Below, piece after piece: positions 18,110-39,390 of a stretch of 64,000 nt of DNA. The stretch is taken from NCBI RefSeq assembly GCF_963921235.1, contig NC_086097.1:151468001-151532000 (forward strand), read 5' to 3'. The position numbers and the translations under genes were made by a program. The stretch comes from Mobula hypostoma. Lineage: Eukaryota. The notes under the pieces are model-generated. The model ran no database searches and was not told where the DNA came from. It saw only the letters and a list, made by a program, of their open reading frames with translations. Numbering within the stretch: position 1 is the first letter of the stretch; every line of letters starts with the position of its first letter.

Positions 18110-18409
18110 AGATGTGGCGCATGGCTCAAGTGGTTAGGGCCATTGGACTAGCGATCCGAAGGTCGTGGGTTCGAGCCTCAGCCGAGGCAGCATGTGCGTC
18201 CTTGAGCAAGGCACTTACCACACAATGCTCCAGTCTACCCAGCTGAGAATGGGTACGGGCAAAAATGCTGGGGGTTAATGTCGCGATAGACTGGCGTCCT
18301 ATCGGTGGGGCGAGGGGGGAGTCTCGTACTCACCGTCACTTCACACCACGGAAACCGGCATAAACACCATCCTGATGGGCCACAAGGCTCGGGACAGACT
18401 TTGATTAAT
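18110..18409 (+). mobile_element. young tRNA-derived SINE with 12-bp TSD
   Basis: A box TGGCTCAAGTGG, B box GGTTCGAGCC; TSD CTTAAAATAACT at 18098-18109 and 18410-18421; CpGs retained. Confidence 0.85.
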
Positions 18410-19022: not shown

Positions 19023-19710
19023 TGTAAGGGGATTTCGTCTCTTATGTTACTGTGTAGGCTAATTAAAATGGCTTCTATGTTTTGTTATACTTGGGAATGC
19101 TTCTTTGTTACGTTTAAACGCTGAGAAAGTCCTTCCCGCTAGCAGTTTGTTTTGTGTTATCTATTGATATGAGGACAAATGAACCAATTGCGATAGTTGT
19201 TATGCTTTTGGTGTGTCTGAAGATATTGTATGTGCGGGGTTTGGGGGCAGAAGGGGGAGAGAGAGACGGTGAATACACCAGGTGCTGTGAGTCTGCTAAC
19301 GGGGTCGGACCCCAAGCGGGGCATTCGGCGAGGAGGGGAGACATAGACGGACTCGTGTGGAGCGTTTGGTTGACCACCGTTGTTGGTCCCAGGCGGCCGG
19401 TCGAGGTGGTCCAAGGGGTCGCAGGGTGAAGAAGAAGGGGCCTGAGCTCCAACTGTTTGTGCACGAAGAGATAAGTGTGGCGCCTTTTATTTTCCTTTTA
19501 TATTTTATTCTCTAATAATTATATAGTTCCAGTAATATCTATAAACTGTAAATCATTTAATCGTATCTGGTGTATTGTCTGTTATTTGGGTGGGATGGGG
19601 TACATCACACAGCATCCAGACAAACTAATTACCCAGTTTGGTGGGGCCGAGGGCTGTTTCCCTAGACGACAGTGAGCTGAGTGACCCTGAGGGTGGCTGT
19701 GGGGGCTACA
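19023..19710 (+). repeat. 5' LTR (688 bp)
   Basis: TGTAAGGGG..GGGGGCTACA; direct repeat of 22524-23218. Confidence 0.95.
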
Positions 19711-19713
19711 TAG

Positions 19714-19731
19714 TGGGGGCTCCTCCGGGAT
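19714..19731 (+). promoter_or_regulatory. primer binding site, tRNA-Pro
   Basis: TGGGGGCTCCTCCGGGAT, 17/18 match to the tRNA-Pro PBS TGGGGGCTCGTCCGGGAT, 3 nt after the LTR. Confidence 0.9.
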
Positions 19732-19759
19732 TGGATCTACTGGTATGCTGTGTGGTGGT

Positions 19760-20420
19760 CCTGTTTAAATCGGTAATGTGTGTCTCTGTGGGTTATTTGC
19801 TGGTTATTGCTGTATGCATGGTGGATGAGGTCTTTGTTCGAGTTCAGACTAGCACTGACGAGTTGGAGGTGGAACTCGGGGCTGTCCATGCTGTTGGGAG
19901 AGAAAGGAAAGAGTGGTCTGATTTGGAGGTAGTGCGTGCGAATAAATGTTCTAGCTCTGGCAGGCTCCGCCTGGTGTTTGGGATAATGTCCACCCCAGAA
20001 GGGGCGGAGGCGTGCGAGATGTGGGCGGAGCGGATCTCTCAGTTGTTAGATGAGTGGCAGTGCTCGGTTGAGCGAGAGTGACAGGGATTGACTGAAAGTT
20101 TAAGTAGGCGGGCTGGTGACGGTGTTAGAGCTGTCAGGCTCACTTACACCGTAGTGACAACTGTCAGTTATTTGAAAGAGGGGGGAAAGTTTTCAGTCTG
20201 TCTTCTTTGGCTAGGAGGGCAGCTAAATTGCTTGCAGTGCCAGGGGGATCATTTCAGGGGATCAGCCCCTCCTTCAGTTGTTCAGCTGATCAGAGAGGTG
20301 TCGGGAAACTTAGTGGAGGCCCAGGGGGGAACGGCTTGGAGTCTCTGGGGAAGCACGTTCCCAGCAATGTACCAATGAACTTCCGAAAGGAGAAGACCCT
20401 ATTCCTGAAGGCTTAGAGGG
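19760..20420 (+). pseudogene. degraded PNMA-like Gypsy gag
   Basis: [46 protein letters not shown]; contains stops and deletions. Confidence 0.85.
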
Positions 20421-20433
20421 ACCACGCCCCAAG

Positions 20434-21225
20434 GTGTCGTTACGGATAGAGGGAAATGATGTTAAAGCCATCCTCGACCCTGGGGCTCAGGTCAAGTTGT
20501 TGTACAGTTTGTTTTGCAACCGATGTCTGAAGCATTTACCCTTGACAACCGCAAGGGCACCGGAGATTTTGGGTACCAGGGCTAGTAGTTATCCAGAAGA
20601 CAATGATTGGTTAATGACCCTGGAGTTCATGGGGGCATTGTCTGGGCACCCTGTGTGTTGAGTTGCTTCTGAGGACGTGTGAAGCAGCCTTAAGCCGGTA
20701 CCGAATTTAAACGAGGCCCAGCGGTGGTACGGCCTGGGGAAAGTAGCTGAGGGTGAGACCCTCTTAGTAGCTGCTCCGAACTACCACGAGGGAGGGGAGT
20801 TGACCGCTGAAGATACCTCAGTGAGAGAGAGGTTGCGGCAACTGGACCCTGGCGCTGTGGAAGATGGGGGCAGCGTGTGTGCGGATTATGTGACGTCGTT
20901 TAATGTGCTGGATCTGAGGAGTGGATGTTGCCAGATCCCGAGGAGTGCGATTGTCGAGCCGACAACGGCCGTTATTAGTTCCCTAGGATTCTTCCGATCC
21001 GAAAAGATGCCCAAGGGCATATCCAAAGCCCCTGCATCCTTCCCGTGGGGCACGAGGAAGACCATGGGGGAAGTGAAGGTGTGTGGAGTTTTGGCGTATG
21101 TGGATGACCGCCTAGAGCTTGGATTCGCCTGGGGGGACTATGAGGCGAGGCGAGTGGCTGAGCCCGGGCGACCGAAGCGAAGTGTCAAATGTGGAGGAGT
21201 TTTTGGCTGGAAGAGTTTGGTGTAA
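20434..21225 (+). pseudogene. degraded protease and N-terminal part of reverse transcriptase
   Basis: [11 protein letters not shown] (aspartic protease DTG-like motif); [34 protein letters not shown]. Confidence 0.9.
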
Positions 21226-21228
21226 TGT

Positions 21229-22032
21229 GAGAAAAATGACCCGACATACCAGTTGAACTTCCTGGTGTTGGAACAGACAGTGGTGGACCTAGGGATGGAA
21301 ACCCAGGTCGTCAATCTGAATGAGACACAGGGGAGAGGGGATTTGCACCACTGAACTAAGTGCTCAGAACTGCCGGCCGGAGACTGCCGCACTTGTGAGA
21401 CGACCATTGCAGACTTGGAATTCACATTCGTCAGCGTGGAGAAGGAACAATGGAGTTCCGAGCCGACACTGCGGTCATGTACTGATGAATTAATCCAGCG
21501 AGCAGAAACAATGACCACCTTTGAAGAGATCAGCAGAAACTCAAGATGTCGATTCAGAAAAGATTGGAAGACTTACAAGTTGGGGAAGATCAAGGAAGTG
21601 TTCTGACTAAGGCCAACAGAAAACTGAGAGCCCAGGGAGGGGAGTTTGACTACGCTCCCAAGGAGGTGCAGAAAAGGAGGACAGATCTTGGAAACAGGAG
21701 GCGGACGCTTGAAAGGAGCCTGAAGATGACTATCGCGAGTTTAGATGAAGTGGAAAAACTGAAAGTTGACCTGGAAAATGTCATCAGGAAGAAAAAACTG
21801 GAGGCTGACCATCTTTTAACTGCTGCTTTTCAGGTCAGGGTGGAAGAAGCTGGTGGGGTAACTGCGTCCCAGATGGAGATGGCCAAGAACCCTGAATCAG
21901 AGCTGCTGAGGCTGTGGCGAGAGCTGAAGGAGTCCCCGAAGAAGCTGATGTCTCGACTGCAGGACGCTGAAGAGGTAGCCCCGGCTAAATGTTTCAGTTT
22001 GGAGAAACTTAAAACAGCGGCTACCGATCGAG
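21229..22032 (+). pseudogene. captured intronless fragments of a sarcomeric myosin heavy chain rod (MYH16-like)
   Basis: [107 protein letters not shown] then QRLPIE. All are collinear with myosin II rod motifs. Confidence 0.88.
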
Positions 22033-22510
22033 GGAATGAGGACGAATAGGAATTCGAAGGATGATGTGCTGCACATGTGGTACATGCTGCCTTTCGCTAT
22101 CTTCCCCGTGATTGAGGAGACCTTTGGCCCTTCTCCCACTGAGTCAGGTGTAGTGGGGAGGGCTAGCTGTGGGCAGTCTGAGTTACGGCAGGATCAGGAA
22201 GGAAAAGAAGCGGGGCCCCGGACACAGGACAGGGGGCTCCGAGCTGTAATGGTGGCCTGAATGAGAGAGGAGTTGGCAAGCAGGCCCTAGGTATCCCTAG
22301 TAGTGTCTGGGCCTTTTGGGTTTAGGTGAGGGGGGTACAGAGGTCTCGGAGGGTTAAGAAGCTCCCAGATAGGTTAACCTATGTAGCGCCCGTGGGACAG
22401 GCGTAAGGTCCACTGTTTGAGGAGCACTGTCACTGTGTGTATGTGTGTGTTGTGTGTCTGCAGGACTGGTCGGCGAGTTATTTAGAAGTCATGATGGCAT
22501 GACTTTATTT

Positions 22511-22523
22511 GGTGGGGGGAGAG
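22511..22523 (+). promoter_or_regulatory. polypurine tract
   Basis: GGTGGGGGGAGAG immediately before the 3' LTR. Confidence 0.85.
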
Positions 22524-23218
22524 TGTAAGGGGGTTTCGTCTCTTATGTTACTGTGTAGGCTAATTAAAATGGCTTTTTTGTTATGTTATACTTTGGAATG
22601 CTTTGTTATGTTAAACGCTGAGAAAGTCCTTCCCACCTGCAGTTTGTTTTGTATTATCTATTGATACGAGGACTAATGAACCATTTGCGATAGTTGTTAT
22701 GCTTTTGTTGTGTCTGAAGATATTGTATGCATGGAGTTTTGGGGCAGAAGGCGGGAGAGAGAGACAGAGAATGGACCAGGTGCTGTGAGTCCGCTAACGG
22801 GGTTAGACCCCAAGCGGGGCGTTCGGCGAGGAGGGGAGATGGAGACGGACTCGTGTAGAGCGTCTGGTTGACCACCATTGTTGGTCCCAGGCGGCTGGTT
22901 GAGGTGGTCCAAGGGGTCGCAGGGTGAAGAAGAAGGGTCCTGAGCTCCAACTGTTTGTGCACGAAGAGATTGAACTTTGATAAGTGTGGCACCTTTTATT
23001 TTCTTTTTATATTTTATTCTCTATTAATTATATAGTTCCAGTAATATCTATAAACTGTAAATCATTTAGTCGTAGCTGGTGTATTGTCTGTTATTTGGGC
23101 GGGGTGGGGTACATCACACAGCATCCATACAAACTAATTACCCAGTTTGGCGGGGCCGAGGGCTGTTTCCCTAGACGACAGCGAGCCGAGCGACCCTGAG
23201 GGTGGCCGGGGGGCTACA
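22524..23218 (+). repeat. 3' LTR (695 bp)
   Basis: TGTAAGGGGG..GGGGGCTACA. Confidence 0.95.
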
Positions 23219-23689: not shown

Positions 23690-26033
23690 CCCACAAGTGG
23701 GCACTATCATCCCATAGAGCTGTGAGAATTTCTAAGAGGGCAATAAAAGTAAAATGGAGGGGGAGCTGGGGGATAATAGTCTTAAATTAATAATTGAATT
23801 ATGTATTATAAGCATTTGATCCTCAGTGCCTCATAATTGATTACAATGATCGTGTAATCTCCTCTTGCTAACTCACTGTTCTCTTAGACCTTGCTTGAAG
23901 CATGCTATAGTTATTGAAAAGCAATGTGACACCTTCTGTATTTCGGTGCCGTGAGAAATTTGGACTGAAGAAATTGTGTTATTTCCAGGCCAGGCCTCCG
24001 CATTATTGCCATTCACTATAGTACAGTGTTAGCCACTACGATTCCCATACTCTAATCCTGTAGTGATGCAATTCCTGTTGTGTGAAAAGATGTTTTAAAA
24101 TAAGGCAATGAAACCATCCAGGCTCCTTGAACATTTGAAGAGAACGCTCTCTGATAAAGCAAATGAAAACTTGGATTTTTTTTCAGTCACTTTGTGAAAG
24201 TTGTCAGAAATGGAACACACTTCAAAACATGTTTACTGTGTTTTGAAATACTTTTCACAACAAAATGATGATGGTTTGTGTGCTTCATACTCATTGCTGA
24301 GTCTGGAAAGCCCCATACAATTGGAGAAGAACTGAATCTGACAGCAATAAGGGAGGTTCCAAGTACACTTTTGAAGTCACCAGACCAAATAATTAAAGTG
24401 ATTGCTCTCAGCGACACCTCTGTTCAAAGATGAATCGATGAGAATGTGGAGGACATATTGTGCAGAACACTTAGGATAACAGAATTTGCTGTTGAGATGG
24501 ATGAGTCAGTTTTGCCAGGCAACAACTCTTGCTTCAAGGTTATGTTTGCTTCATAAAAGATGAAAGCATGGTTCAAAAGTTGTTACTTGCAAGGGACTAG
24601 AAACAGATTCAAAGGGAGAGTCAATATTTAGGATTGTTGAGCATTTTTTCCAAAGAGAAGGACATTCCTCTCACCAACAGGCTTGCTTGTACAATAGACA
24701 GGGCACCATCAATGACCAGACACCACTGTGGGGTTAGTACTTTATTGATGAAAGCTGTATCTAACATATTTACCGTGTAATTCACAGACATCTTATTGCA
24801 GAAAACCCAAGTGATCAGCTGCACATATCATTAGAAGTTCATTTATTAAATACTGTTATCATAGCAGTAAATAACATCAACTCCATGATCTTAATTCCCA
24901 ACTATTTCAAGAGTTTTCTATCGAGAACGATGAACAGTTTGAATGCTTGCTGTTGCAGATAGAAGTCAGATGGCTCTCAAAAGGAAACTGCCTGAGACAC
25001 TTTTATGTGCTTTTTGAAGCTGTGATAAAATTCCTTGAAGACTCAAATGCTTTATTTATTAATCAGCTCAAGAATATTAGGCATGATATTAGTTATTTGT
25101 CAATATTTAAAGTTCAGTGAAATCAGTCTTCAATTTGAAGGAAATGATGTGAATCTTGTTAAAGCCAAATCTGTCATCTCTGCATTTCATTAAGTTAACC
25201 CTTTTGAAGTACAACAGTGGCCTTCGCAACCTTTCCAATTTCAGAGCCTCTTTGAATCGGAAAAGAAAGGCTACTAGAAAATGATCTTTGAGTATACTGT
25301 ACATACCTGGGTGAGCTGCATAAAGACATGTCAGAGAGATTTTAGCATCATCCCTCAATTCATATTCCACATTGGATGATATATCCATTCCTGAACATTT
25401 GTAATAAGGAATTAACAGGAAGGATTGAGGAAGAACTGATCTCATTACAAAATGACCTAGAGTTGAAGCTGAAGTTCAAAAATCATATTAAGACCTTTGG
25501 TTGCAAAAATAAATTTCTGAATGCTCTCCTACACTGTGGAGAAAGATCAAGATGTTCTTTTACTTTCCCAGCATCATATTTAGTGGTGTGCATTTTCAGT
25601 GCAGTTGTCCAATTTCTTTCAATGCAATGAAGCAGTCTGCAAATTACTGAACGTGAGGATCTGAGACTCTTAAGTGACATTTGACCTGATGTTGAGAAGC
25701 TGATATTGCTCCAACAAGCCCATCCATCTCATTGAAAGGTGAAAATCAATGAAGTAGTGATTAGTTAGACTAGGAATGTTTACTCTAAAATTGCTGATGA
25801 AAATTTTCTATTGAAATTAAATTTTTAAAACATTTCTAACTTTAAATAGATTTGAATAATTTCTGCAATTATTTGTCATTGCTTTGCATTTGCAGTTCCT
25901 ATTTTCTTTGTGCTTCTGAAATTAAAATTCTTTATAGTTTTTATGTAATGGCCAGAAAGAGAGAGGGGAGCACTGGAGTTGTGGTCTGAGAGCCAAGAGG
26001 CGGTAACCCAAAAAGAAAGTTTGGAAACCACTG
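23690..26033 (+). mobile_element. degraded hAT (Charlie/Buster-like) transposon with transposase pseudogene
   Basis: Remnants SGKPHTIGEEL, IALSDTSVQR, MDES, TDSKGESIF, TDRAPSM, EVRWLSKG; right TIR TTTGGAAACCACTG. Left end uncertain. Confidence 0.85.
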
Positions 26034-26322: not shown

Positions 26323-27884
26323 CAGGTTTCCCCTGCCATCCAAAGATAGAGCTTTCCTATGAAACGGTTCGTAAGCCGAAATGTCGTAAAGCGAAGAAGC
26401 GATTACCATTTATTTATATGGGAAAATTTTGTGAGCGTTCACAGACCCAAAAATAACCTACCAAATCATGCCAAATAACACATAAAACCTAAAATAACAG
26501 TAACACATAGTAAAAGCAGGAATGATATGATAAATACACAGCCTATATAAAGTAGAAATACTTTTCCACTATCATTACTGAACTGTTCTCCACAGTGAAA
26601 ATCTCACGCAAGCGCCGTCGACAGAAAATCTCACACAAGCACTGTTGGCAAGAACACTCTCTCCAGTAACCTTTAAGCTATGAAGCTGCCAAATCATACC
26701 AAATAACACGTAAAAATACACAGCCTATATAAAGTAGAAATAATGTATGTACAGTGTAGTATCACTTACGGGAATCGGGAAGATAGCTTGCCGAGCATAC
26801 TGATGATGGTGTGTTAGACTGAGTCATCGCAGGTTGGGTGGTGCAGTGGCCCCCACCCTCCAGGCCACCGAGCGATACGTTGCCGCGAAGCATGCAGGAA
26901 TGCAGCGGTAGCCAGGAGGTACACAGCACATCTTTAAGAAAAAAGCCGAAATAAACAAGCTAATTAATTAGGTGCCACCCGACATGTAATTATCGGCCCA
27001 GATTAGTGCCGATTTCCGATTGCGTCGTCTCTGATCTGGGCTGACAATTAGGTGTCGGCGGCACCTAATTAATTAGCATGTTTATTTCGGCTTTTTTCTT
27101 AAAGATGTGCTATATGTCTCCCGGCTACCGTTGCATTTTCCGTGAGTTGGTATCTGTCCGTGGCCTGTGGGTTGGGGTGGTGGGACACTGGGGTGTCATC
27201 TCGTCATCTGTTTCCATTAGAGCAGGCAGCTCATCTTCTTCTATCTCTGCTCGCCTCGACGTCGAAGGTCGAGGTTCGTCGTCTGCTGTGGCTGATGTGG
27301 AAGGCTTGCTTGACTGCTGAGCCTCGCGCATTTTTCTATCACACAGTTCTTTAGTAAGGACTCAAACCATCCTGCAAATATCTCCTAAACTGACGTACCC
27401 TTTCAAAATTAAAGTCATACTTTATCATTACTCATTCAGCTTTGATTGTTATCCTTTTTTCTTCCAATTGCATCAGCTCTTCATCTGTCAGTTCTTGGTG
27501 ATGGGATGCCAAAACCTCTTCAACATCATGTTCGTCAGCTTCCACAAGCCAAACTCACGTTGTCCTTACTTCGTTCACCACGATCAAAACGCTTAATTAC
27601 GTCTAGTTTTACCGTAAGTGTAACACCCTTATGAGCTCTTTCAGGCTTTTCCAATACCATAGAACTCATCTTGCAAACGGCTGCTCACAGGCACGTGTTA
27701 AAGCAAAGCAGTTCCGAATTCGGGGGACAGCGGCTGCTCGGGACGTGCGTTGCCTTTTATCGCGCGCTTTATTTTTTTTTTGTAACAGTGAAAACACCTT
27801 CTGAAAGCGAAAATGGTACTAATGTAGGTCTTTCGTAACAGTGAGGTTTCGTAAAGCGAACGTTCGAAAAGCGGGGGACACCTG
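26323..27884 (-). mobile_element. internally deleted Tigger-like DNA transposon
   Basis: Termini CAGGTTTCCCC / GGGGGACACCTG|TA; minus-strand transposase N-terminus KGVTLTVKLDVIKRFDRGER; acidic C-terminal remnant DDEPRPSTS. Confidence 0.85.
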
Positions 27885-28397
27885 TAACATTAATATTGTT
27901 CAATGGTGAGAAGAACTATTGTTTGAAATATTTAGAAGCAAAGAAATAGCATTGATATCAGGAAATGTAATGTGGAGAGCATTAGGGATATACAGTATGT
28001 GCTCCACATTGTTTAACGTTATTTCCAGTACACAAGTAAAGGAGAACAAAATAATTGTCACTTTGGATCTGGTGCAGTAGAAAATAATAACCCAGTAAGA
28101 TTAAGAACATAATAACAAAAAACACAAATATATATAAATACATAAGATTCTTGTATATACATTGATTGCATGTCCATAATGTGATGCTAGGCATAGGAGT
28201 GTCTGTACATAAGCTGACCCTGACAGGAAATGATAGTGATTGTAGGCAGTGTGACGAGGTAGGATAGTGGGTGGAGGTGTTGTTGATCAGCCTTACTGCT
28301 TGGGTAAAGTAATTTTTTGAATCCGATGACCTGACTTACAGAAATTACACCATGAAAATTCTGTTGTACTTACTGTAATTCTACAGACAACTTAAAG

Positions 28398-29150
28398 CAG
28401 GGATTCCCAACCTTTTGCACCGCGGACCAGTTTAATATTGACAATATTCTTGCGGACCAGCCGACCACGGGGGAGTTAAACTCACCTCAACATGTCTTTT
28501 ACATTTAGGGTTGCCAACTTTCTTACTCCCAAATAAGGGACAAAAGTAGCAGTCAGATCCCAGGACATTTTACCCCAGGAAAGACTACCATGACCATGAA
28601 GCCTTGTGCAGGCACCTGTGTGCGCATGCGTGTGCATATGTGACGTGCGCATGTGCGTACGTGCAGGTTTTTTTTCCACAAATCGGCTTTGCCTTAATCT
28701 TCCCAACTACACTGTAGATACATGATTTATACTTTATATAGGCTGTGTCTTTATCATTTCATTCCTGCTTTTACTATATTTTAGTGTTATTTTAGGTTTT
28801 ATGTGTTATTTGGTATGATTTGGTAGGTTTTTTTGGGTCTGGGAACGCTCAAAAATTTTTCCCATATAGATTAATGGTAATTGCTGCTTCGCTTCACGCC
28901 AGTTTGGCACGAAAGGTTTCATAGGAACACTCTACCTTAGCAGGGGAAATACAGGACAAGGGCGGTCCCTTAAGGGACAAACCAATTTAGCCCAATATAT
29001 GGGATGTCCCGGCAAATACGGGACAGTTGCCAACCCTATGTTCAAGTTCAACAGTGCGTGACAAGGAATGAGGAAAGGTGTAGCTGACTCGTATCGTTTC
29101 CTCGCAGCCCGGTAGCACATGCTCTGCGGCCCGGTGTTTGGGGACCTCTG
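28398..29150. mobile_element. composite hAT MITE
   Basis: TIRs CAGGGATTCCCAAC / TTTGGGGACCTCTG; 8-bp TSD ACTTAAAG/GCTTAAAG; inner TAGGGTTGCCAAC..GTTGCCAACCCTA unit at 28506-29038. Confidence 0.85.
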
Positions 29151-36764: not shown

Positions 36765-39390
36765 TCCTCCCAACATGCTGGAGGAACTCAGCAGGTCGGG
36801 CAGCATCCGTGGAAACGATCATTCAACGTTTCGGGCCGGAACCCTTCATTAGGACTGAAGAGGGAAGGGGCAGAGGCCCTATAAAGAAGGTGGGGGGAGG
36901 GTGGGAAGGAGAAGGCTGGTAGGTTCCAGGTGAAAAACCAGTAAGGGGAAAGATAAAAGGGTGGGGGAGGGGAAGCAGGGAGGTGATAGGCAGGAAACAT
37001 AGAAACATAGAAAATAGGTGCAGGAGTAGGCCATTCGCCCTTCGAGCCTGCACCGCCATTTATTATGATCATGGCTGATCATCCAACTCAGAACCCCGCC
37101 CCAGCCTTCCCTCCATACCCCCTGATCCCCGTAGCCACAAGGGCCATATCTAACTCCCTCTTAAATATAGCCAATGAACTGGCCTCAACTGTTTCCTGTG
37201 GCAGAGAATTCCACAGATTCACCACTCTCTGTGTGAAGAAGTTTTTCCTAATCTCGGTCCTAAAAGGCTTCCCCTTTATCTTCAAACTGTGACCCCTTGT
37301 TCTGAACTTCCCCAACATCAGGAACAATCTTCCTGCATCTAGCCTGTCCAATCCCTTTAGGATTTTATACGTTTCAATCAGATCCCCCCTCAATCTTCTA
37401 AATTCCAACGAGTACAAGCCCAGTTCATCCAGTCTTTCTTCATATGAAAGTCCTGCCATCCCAGGAATCAATCTGGTGAACCTTCTTTGTACTCCCTCTA
37501 TGGCAAGGATGTCTTTCCTCAGATTAGGGGACCAAAACTGCACACAATACTCCAGGTGTGGTCTCACCAAGGCCTTGTACAACTGCAGTAGTACCTCCCT
37601 GCTCCTATACTCAAATCCTCTCGCTATAAATGCCAGCATACCATTCACCTTTTTCACCGCCTGCTGTACCTGCATGCCCACTTTCAATGACTGGTGTATA
37701 ATGACACCCAGGTCTCGTTGCACCTCCCCTTTTCCTAATCGGCCACCATTCAGATAATAATCTGTTTTCCTATTTTTGCCACCAAAGTGGATAACTTCAC
37801 ATTTATCCACATTAAATTGCATCTGCCATGAATTTGCCCACTCACCCAACCTATCCAAGTCACTCTGCATCCTCTTAGCATCCTCCTCACAGCTAACACT
37901 GCCACCCAGCTTCGTGTCATCCGCAAACTTGGAGATGCTGCATTTAATTCCCTCATCCAAGTCATTAATATATATTGTAAACAACTGGAGTCCCAGCACT
38001 GAGCCTTGCAGTACCCCACTAGTCACCGCCTGCCATTCTGAAAAGGTCCCGTTTATTCCCACTCTTTGCTTCCTGTCTGCTAACCAATTCTCCATCCACA
38101 TCAATACCTTACCCCCAATACCGTGTGCTTTAAGTTTGCACACTAATCTCCTGTGTGGGACCTTGTCAAAAGCCTTTTGAAAATCCAAATATACCACATC
38201 CACTGGTTCTCCCCTATCTACTCTACTAGTTACATCCTCAAAAAATTCTATGAGATTCGTCAGACATGATTTTCCTTTCACAAATCCATGCTGACTTTGT
38301 CCGATGATTTCACCGCTTTCCAAATGTGCTGTTATCACATCTTTGATAACTGACTCCAGCAGTTTCCCCACCACTGACGTTAGGCTAACCGGTCTATAAT
38401 TCCCCGGTTTCTCTCTCCCTCCTTTTTTAAAAAGTGGGGTTACATTAGCCACCCTCCAATCCTCAGGAACTAGTCCAGAATCTAACGAGTTTTGAAAAAT
38501 TATCACTAATGCATCCACTATTTCTTGGGCTACTTCCTTGAGCACTCTAGGATGCAGACCATCTGGCCCTGGGGATTTATCTGCCTTCAATCCCTTCAAT
38601 TTATCTAACACCACTTCCCTACTAACGTATATTTCGCTCAGTTCCTCCATCTCACTGGACCCTCTGTCCCCTACTATTTCTGGAAGATTATTTATATCCT
38701 CCTTAGTGAAGACAGAACCAAAGTAATTATTCAATTGGTCTGCCATGTCCTTGCTCCCCATAATCAATTCACCTGTTTCTGTCTGTAGGGGACCTACATT
38801 TGTCTTTACCAGTCTTTTCCTTTTTTCATATCTATAAAAGCTTTTACAGTCAGTTTTTATGTTCCCTGCCAGTTTTCTCTCATAATCTTTTTTCCCCTTC
38901 CTAATTAAGCCCTTTGTCCTCCTCTGCTGAACTCTGAATTTCTCCCAGTCCTCAGGTGAGCCACTTTCTCTGGCTAATTTGTATGCTGCTTCTTTGGAAT
39001 TGATACTATCCCTAATTTCTCTTGTCAGCCACGGGTACACTACCTTCCTTGATTTATTCTTTTGCCAAACTGGGATGAACAATTGTTGTAGTTCATCCAT
39101 GCAACCTTTAAATGCTTGCCATTGCATATCCACTGTCAATCCTTTAAGTGTCATTTGCCAGTCTATCTTAGCTAATAAGGTGAAGAAGGAATAGGGGAAA
39201 ACACAATGGGTAGTAGAAGGAGGTGGAACCATGAGGCAGGTGATAGGCAGCTGGGGGAGGGGACAGAGTGACATAGGGATAGAGGAAGGGAGGGGGAGGG
39301 AATTACCGGAAGTTGGAGAATTCTATGTTCATACCAAGGGGCTGGAGACTACCTAGACAGTATATGAGGTGTTGCTCCTCCAGCCTGAGT
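36765..39390 (-). mobile_element. Penelope-derived element split by a young CR1
   Basis: 36765-36994 and 39177-39390 are contiguous pieces homologous to 2100-2540. Confidence 0.75.
36995..39176 (-). mobile_element. young 5'-truncated CR1 LINE with uninterrupted RT reading frame
   Basis: ORF 37088-39274 (728 aa) with PGNYRPVSLTS, YLDFQKAFDKV, QGSVLG, KFADDTK; (TCTATGTT)n tail; no endonuclease domain. Confidence 0.95.

Follow-up and report, generated by a model that had tools for sequence, protein, structure and literature searches.

The window, a 64,000-nucleotide stretch of the Mobula hypostoma genome, contains a two-LTR Gypsy element of 4.2 kb that spans positions 19023–23218. As the preliminary description of this DNA had it, the element carries a pair of LTRs and a reverse transcriptase (RT) with the motif YVDD. 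The LTRs lie in direct orientation with TG...CA ends and are adjoined by a primer-binding site (PBS) and a polypurine tract (PPT). In the following, the internal region is compared with L050, an integrase-bearing relative in the same genome with PNMA, zinc knuckle, RT, RNase H, H2C2 and rve domains, and with the exons (a to m) of a host gene referred to as the donor.

19023..19710, + strand: 5' LTR (TG...CA), 636/685 aligned bases identical to the 3' LTR
19714..19731, + strand: primer-binding site directly after the LTR, 17/18 bases fitting what we take to be a tRNA-Pro-type PBS
19776..20300, + strand: PNMA-type gag remnant, deleted, zinc knuckles absent (tblastx/tblastn to L050)
20329..20628, + strand: aspartic protease remnant, 53% over 100 aa to L050, with a weak Pfam RVP match (E = 0.035)
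20812..21150, + strand: truncated RT with YVDD at 21097–21108, 45% over 91 aa to L050
21199..21281, + strand: RNase H remnant including EKNDPTYQL, 15/30 residues matching L050 RNase H
21282..21446, + strand: captured myosin, donor exon a nt 51–221, 126/165 aligned bases identical to the donor exon
21447..21840, + strand: captured myosin equivalent to exons b–e, spliced, with internal deletions, in continuous alignment across host MYH16 junction positions
21841..21938, + strand: captured myosin, end of exon g and start of exon h, 31/32 and 53/66 bases matching the donor
21938..22042, + strand: captured myosin, exon m preceded by the last bases of exon l, 84/102 bases matching donor exon m
22043..22258, + strand: acidic C-terminal tail of Gypsy pol, matching the L050 tail "DTSSEDDDSDVWY...EETPGPS" that lies after the L050 integrase
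22511..22523, + strand: polypurine tract, read from the sequence
22524..23218, + strand: 3' LTR, 636/685 aligned bases identical to the 5' LTR

The gag of the window copy gave no Pfam match of its own; PNMA was matched at E = 1.2e-14 in an older copy of the element and at E = 1.1e-34 in L050. The protease remnant reads DPG where L050 has DTG, and the RT remnant also matches unnamed Gypsy pols. Protease, RT and RNase H follow in Gypsy order in the window, and the full order including integrase is found in L050; the domain order of the window element is judged partly from this relative, whose tail matches that of the window. With no integrase match anywhere in it, and with gag, RT and RNase H deleted, the window element falls short of an autonomous Gypsy element. 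Pfam searches over eight window frames returned weak matches only, none of them to myosin. Small indels and stops within the myosin part show the copy to be decayed, and its flanks, tgtg and tttg, a possible target-site duplication, agree at 3/4 bases inside a TG repeat. When the LTR was searched against the genome, all 40 scored matches, the best of 4756 candidates, were at 88–100%, and the PBS was seen at the same site in another copy on a public contig.

Several other repeats occur in the window. A 744-codon open frame at 37088–39322 (− strand) encodes a LINE-type RT, presumably CR1/L2-like, and decayed fragments resembling a DNA transposase at 24100–25700 (+ strand) are, we assume, hAT-like. 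Long inverted repeats at 26375–28908, 2.2–2.4 kb apart and 86–92% identical, with inner inverted repeats, resemble a MITE or DNA transposon. A tRNA-like SINE head was noted by eye at 18114–18400.

The preliminary description had found neither RNase H nor integrase between the YVDD motif and the PPT, and had read myosin from position 21229 on, equating EKNDPTYQL with the myosin sequence EKNDL. The absence of integrase stands, and the rest has to be revised: EKNDPTYQL(NFLVLEQTVV) aligns to the L050 RNase H sequence "ERNYPTHKLEFLALKWAVVD" (window 21199–21288, 15/30 residues), and the myosin begins at 21282, after this RNase H remnant. From there, myosin rod homology is collinear and intron-free to 22042, over 0.76 kb. 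That it is genuine myosin II homology rather than generic coiled coil was borne out: all eight PDB matches of window frame 21525–22046 were sarcomeric myosins, in three collinear stretches (best E = 1.4e-4), and 43/45 protein database matches were full-length myosins, most of them named myosin-16-like, the remaining two being uncharacterized Mobula birostris proteins at 74–83%. The segment spans exon–exon junctions without introns; the g|h junction, for example, lies at 21872|21873, and the 2.7 kb intron of the donor is missing. Alignment to host genes placed the joined junctions at positions matching both MYH16 and the donor, as expected of the proposed capture from spliced mRNA. The structure of the element is not an assembly artefact, because contigs from public runs (4/4 runs, labelled as four organisms) cover 29–30 of 30 bins of the element and two such contigs bridge the RNase H/myosin junction.

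MYH16 had been put forward as the closest source of the insert, and most of the best full-length matches are indeed named myosin-16-like. The host MYH16, on contig C36, has 13 GT-AG exons whose junction positions match the element, with low identity. Isoforms of Narcine bancroftii that fall on the branch of the element differ from one another by a single exon of 29 residues, and their ends lie at exon junctions, the same junctions as those of captured exons b–e; these features pointed to an intron-containing paralogue. This gene is found at G000:C68:14401226-14708195 as a single-copy, intron-containing sister paralogue of MYH16. Its exons a, g, h and m are bounded by GT-AG; these four were compared directly, DNA searches for exons b–f being dominated by copies of the element. 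Against three older copies of the element, exon a has nucleotide identities of 91, 90 and 89%, where MYH16 has 53, 52 and 55%; for the window copy the values are 74% and 44%. Exons g, h and m are about 90% identical to the oldest copy. Over the same columns, amino acid identity to the element is 62–82% for the donor and 42–51% for MYH16, and the motif AKCSSLEKTK is common to donor and element where 15/15 MYH16 rows with sequence there have the form ARA(A/S)SL. The 182.5 kb between exons a and m of the donor gene have collapsed to about 1 kb in the element.

Phylogenetic analysis agreed with these comparisons. In a first tree, MYH16 grouped without the element at 99/98 support, and the element fell outside all sampled MYH16 sequences. 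AU tests (LG+F+G4, 27 rows, 8 rows dropped) rejected six alternative placements with p = 0.002–0.024, namely nesting within batoid, elasmobranch, chondrichthyan, ray-finned or bony MYH16, or within other MYHs. In a later tree, the element clade was sister to the donor, followed by Narcine and then by a Cyprinodon protein, beside MYH16. The grouping of donor and element against Narcine had a support of only 77/96, from which the capture would postdate the split from electric rays; the Cyprinodon protein, which has the upstream motif, joined the donor clade at 82.6/97. The element thus neither nests in MYH16 orthologues nor has the host MYH16 as its nearest relative. A canonical MYH16 donor with a merely diverged fragment, for which the shared junction positions might speak, is refuted by the donor locus, and we give this reading practically no chance. 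Judged from identities, motif and trees, the donor is the MYH16 sister paralogue and not MYH16. Two other origins were dropped: horizontal transfer from a bony fish or cyclostome, since the same genome contains the donor, and a chimera of two myosin genes, since the diagnostic sites are interleaved and one locus holds all of exons a, g, h and m.

The donor gene has very large introns and degenerate neck exons, and the fast myosin cluster is about 0.6 Mb away. The gene belongs to a sister clade of MYH16 (reviewed in PMC6402096) and has the same rod intron positions where tested. It differs from MYH16 in its contig, in its sequence (58.5% identical over 159 aa), in a distinct upstream exon, and in that no motor exons were detected. 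The upstream exon is common to the Narcine and Cyprinodon proteins; that of the Narcine paralogue had one match in the genome, at C68:14521795 (82%), and two further upstream donor exons match Narcine. Motor-domain queries (residues 342–640 had no separate query) found no motor domain near the donor locus, with 118/194 candidates scored in one search and 115/115 in a second. The donor gene therefore looks, from these queries, as if it lacks a motor domain, and it may be an undescribed rod-only myosin; no description of a motorless sister gene of MYH16 in rays and a teleost was found in the literature searched. In the Atlas, a search with the Cyprinodon protein yielded nothing beyond paramyosin-like leads at 0.90. 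Of two matches to the importin-alpha family, one lay 40 kb from MYH16 and the other on the donor contig, 38 Mb from the donor, and these were too weak for a claim that donor and MYH16 are an ohnologue pair. On the same contig, two fast myosin genes at G000:C68:15.45 and 15.52 Mb, 73 kb apart, have near-identical scores at matching exons and are a recent duplicate or an assembly duplication.

Comparison with L050 indicates what the myosin replaced. The two elements match in the order gag, protease, RT and RNase H, then a gap, then the acidic tail. In older copies of the family, a longer RNase H C-terminus is fused in frame to myosin, and one of them runs from the RNase H C-terminus into myosin without a stop and from myosin into the tail in frame. 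Because the older copies run RNase H–myosin–tail, the alignments indicate that the myosin took the place of integrase alone, not of RNase H, and that the subfamily of the window copy later lost most of RNase H together with the first 50 bases of myosin. The pol tail of L050 itself runs into a long tandem array, open in several frames, at L050:6420-7600.

At the 5' junction, the sequences are GAG GAG TGG AAG AGT in L050, cag GAG CGG GAG AGT in the donor and GAG GAG CAG GAG AGT in the element. L050 and the donor agree at 12/14 nucleotides there, with no gap and in the same codon frame; this microhomology is read from L050 as a proxy parent, 65–74% identical and not the direct parent. Within the insert, exon h, at GAG TTG GAG GAG, passes in frame to exons l|m, at GAG GAG TCC AA|G; about 205 codons are skipped by this jump, which has GAGGAG as its microhomology. 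The donor has exon h in full length, and the jump therefore belongs to the element. The 3' junction is in frame and shows no clear microhomology against the proxy L050. The 5' junction point coincides exactly with the donor's splice acceptor for exon a, and the preceding element bases end in AG, as they might if read-through transcription had been followed by splicing from a cryptic donor in pol, in the manner of oncogene capture, with a template switch at the 3' junction alone. However, L050 has GAG rather than GT at this point, and the matching bases continue across the junction in codon register, so that we regard splicing as unlikely. A processed pseudogene made by a LINE, or DNA-level repair, might also have inserted the myosin into a resident element, and LINE-type RT frames are abundant in the window; against this, neither end of the insert shows poly(A) or a duplication, both ends lie within coding sequence, and integrase is replaced, not interrupted. 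We see only a very slight chance of such an origin. The preferred reading remains two template switches of RT.

The spliced segment is highly repeated. A 21-mer across an exon–exon junction (≤2 mismatches) had 657 matches in the genome, compared with one for the reversed control; this is a minimum for the copy number, as the junction is deleted in some subfamilies. In a search with element DNA, 40/40 scored matches, the best of 921 candidates, were at 91–100% over ~900 bases, and all seven tested junctions were common to the best 30 copies, whose myosin part differs by 6.2% on average. Four older copies, ~76% identical to the window, have a longer myosin. LTR pairs were found in three older copies, two at 89–90% and one, split by a nested element, at 81%. 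One older myosin-bearing copy has a different LTR element (RT and RNase H matches, 289-bp repeats at 94%) nested in it, at L035:5800-8900, and a PBS-like sequence after the 3' LTR of L007 suggests a tandem or three-LTR copy. Named proteins of Mobula hypostoma, M. birostris, Hypanus sabinus and Hemitrygon akajei contain fusions of RT/RNase H to myosin or of myosin to the pol tail, placing the family in three genera. Public annotations (P0151, P0153, P0156, P0160, P0301) call copies of the element myosin genes, for example "myosin-16-like" and "putative uncharacterized protein MYH16". The literature searched (subscription papers, repeat libraries and preprint supplements being outside its scope) held no myosin-carrying Gypsy family, and the main text of the mobulid genome preprint has no occurrence of "myosin" or "MYH".

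The tail is in the myosin frame in the family. Among 30 sister copies, one phase runs from 20126 to the majority stop at 22258 without any stop held by half of the copies; its first majority ATG is at 20614. Over 654 codon columns (20300–22250), a stretch that crosses at least nine deletion or fusion junctions, this pol–myosin frame has no majority stop, the most widely shared stop being present in 8/30 copies, and the other two phases have 38 and 40. Neutral simulation (300 simulations) predicted 12–14 shared stops, or 7–8 at half divergence, with P(0) ≤ 0.007; the forced alignment behind this expectation inflates divergence (0.26, vs. 0.21 in myosin alone). The gag frame shows the same deficit more weakly (P(0) = 0.003–0.14); in most copies a shared stop at 20414 closes it, and its overlap with the long frame is in a different phase; one small gag block is read outside its original frame. 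For the pol–myosin frame, dN/dS measured to the older copies was 0.69–0.74, against 0.73–0.75 in neutral simulation; for the myosin part, dN/dS was 0.64–0.74, against a simulated 0.71–0.72. Copies with fewer than 30–40 shared codons or divergence above 0.36–0.40 were dropped from the dN/dS and stop sets, leaving 25–30 of the 30. The myosin segment is free of stops in 9/30 copies, and rare indels show no frame bias (43/165 are multiples of three).

With no shared stops where 7–14 were expected, and with neutral dN/dS, these statistics suggest that selection has probably acted on the open frame and not on the protein sequence. The alternative, an open frame that is a by-product of Glu-codon microhomologies and chance, is appreciably less probable and still worth keeping in mind: the junctions lie in GAG runs, where in-frame joins are favoured by themselves, amino acid change is neutral, and most copies have gag linked to pol out of phase. 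Microhomology accounts for in-frame joins, but not for the missing substitution stops. A function of the myosin protein itself is very doubtful. It is likewise improbable that the pol–myosin fusion is made and used, as a drift-tolerant coiled coil that tethers the element RNA or ribosomes to helper particles; if true, this would explain the kept frame and the success of the family, and would be a case of a host structural protein domesticated by a retrotransposon.

In retroviral oncogene transduction, host mRNA is carried inside an LTR element that depends on a helper, and the captured protein function is under selection. The suggested parallel with such captures holds for the acquisition of a spliced mRNA by a Gypsy element and its subsequent amplification. 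It does not extend to selection, of which the neutral dN/dS of the myosin gives no sign, and the capture, by its probable mechanism, is of an already described kind, LTR template-switch retroposition. In LTR-mediated retrocopies, as set out in the available text of Tan et al. (2016, PMC5131818), part of the internal ORF gives way to a piece of spliced mRNA, the LTRs are kept, microsimilarity occurs at the switches, and further retroposition as a non-autonomous element can follow. The ray element likewise has an intron-free host piece in its ORF, both LTRs, no poly(A) or LINE hallmarks, and further retroposition; of microsimilarity, it has the 12/14 bases at its 5' junction, read against a proxy parent, and the GAGGAG of its internal jump, with none clear at its 3' junction. 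In that text, the remobilized cases are two Drosophila retrocopies at more than one site, whereas the ray element has its hundreds of copies in several subfamilies and genera and, unlike those two cases, an in-frame pol fusion with a deficit of stops. The same text describes a HERV-K capture of FAM8A1, an untranscribed pseudogene (PMC5131818). Both this case and the oncogene captures resemble the ray element in host mRNA within an LTR element, in microsimilarity, as far as the proxy parent shows it for the ray element, and in helper dependence, which is presumed for the ray element. Maize Bs1, an LTR retroelement with three captured plant genes in a chimeric frame, is reported, in the text available, to be transcribed and translated (PMC13317346); the ray element shares the chimeric open frame, but has one vertebrate donor and neutral amino acid change, and is known here from DNA. 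The PNMA-gag Gypsy elements of Xenopus tropicalis (P0164, P0166, P0316) and L050 share the order PNMA gag, protease, RT and RNase H, and have H2C2 and rve integrase domains where the ray family has myosin, as expected if the segment is not a normal part of autonomous relatives; L050 also has the acidic tail. The ray element is thus a non-autonomous Gypsy derivative of the LTR-mediated retrocopy type, not derived from MYH16. Its novelty lies in scale, donor and frame retention, the capture mechanism being already known.

Taken together, a history of template-switch capture, amplification, helper dependence and, with less confidence, frame selection is very probable. In an ancestor of myliobatiform rays, the RT of a PNMA-gag Gypsy element would have left its template directly behind RNase H, where Glu codons offered microhomology, for a co-packaged spliced mRNA of the MYH16 sister paralogue, and would have switched back before the acidic pol tail, leaving about 1 kb of myosin rod in place of the whole integrase, with the ~205-codon jump at the second microhomology. 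The product retained its two LTRs, PBS and PPT, and copies of it came to occupy at least 657 loci. Subfamilies lost different further pieces; in that of the window, four pieces of myosin and most of RNase H are gone. Since the element has no integrase and its RT is truncated, it presumably moved on proteins of autonomous relatives. Master copies would probably have been selected for a stop-free pol–myosin–tail frame while their amino acids drifted at the neutral rate, most likely because translation through the RNA guarded it against decay or aided its entry into particles; the myosin protein itself probably had no role.

With this family, an LTR gene capture in a vertebrate has given rise to a lasting lineage of hundreds of copies across ray genera, for which donor, proxy parent and junctions are known. 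Its copies annotated as myosin genes can inflate myosin counts in rays, and tracing its origin revealed a sister gene of MYH16, apparently motorless, in rays and a teleost. With a stop-free frame and neutral amino acid change, these natural copies can test whether non-autonomous LTR elements need to be translatable.
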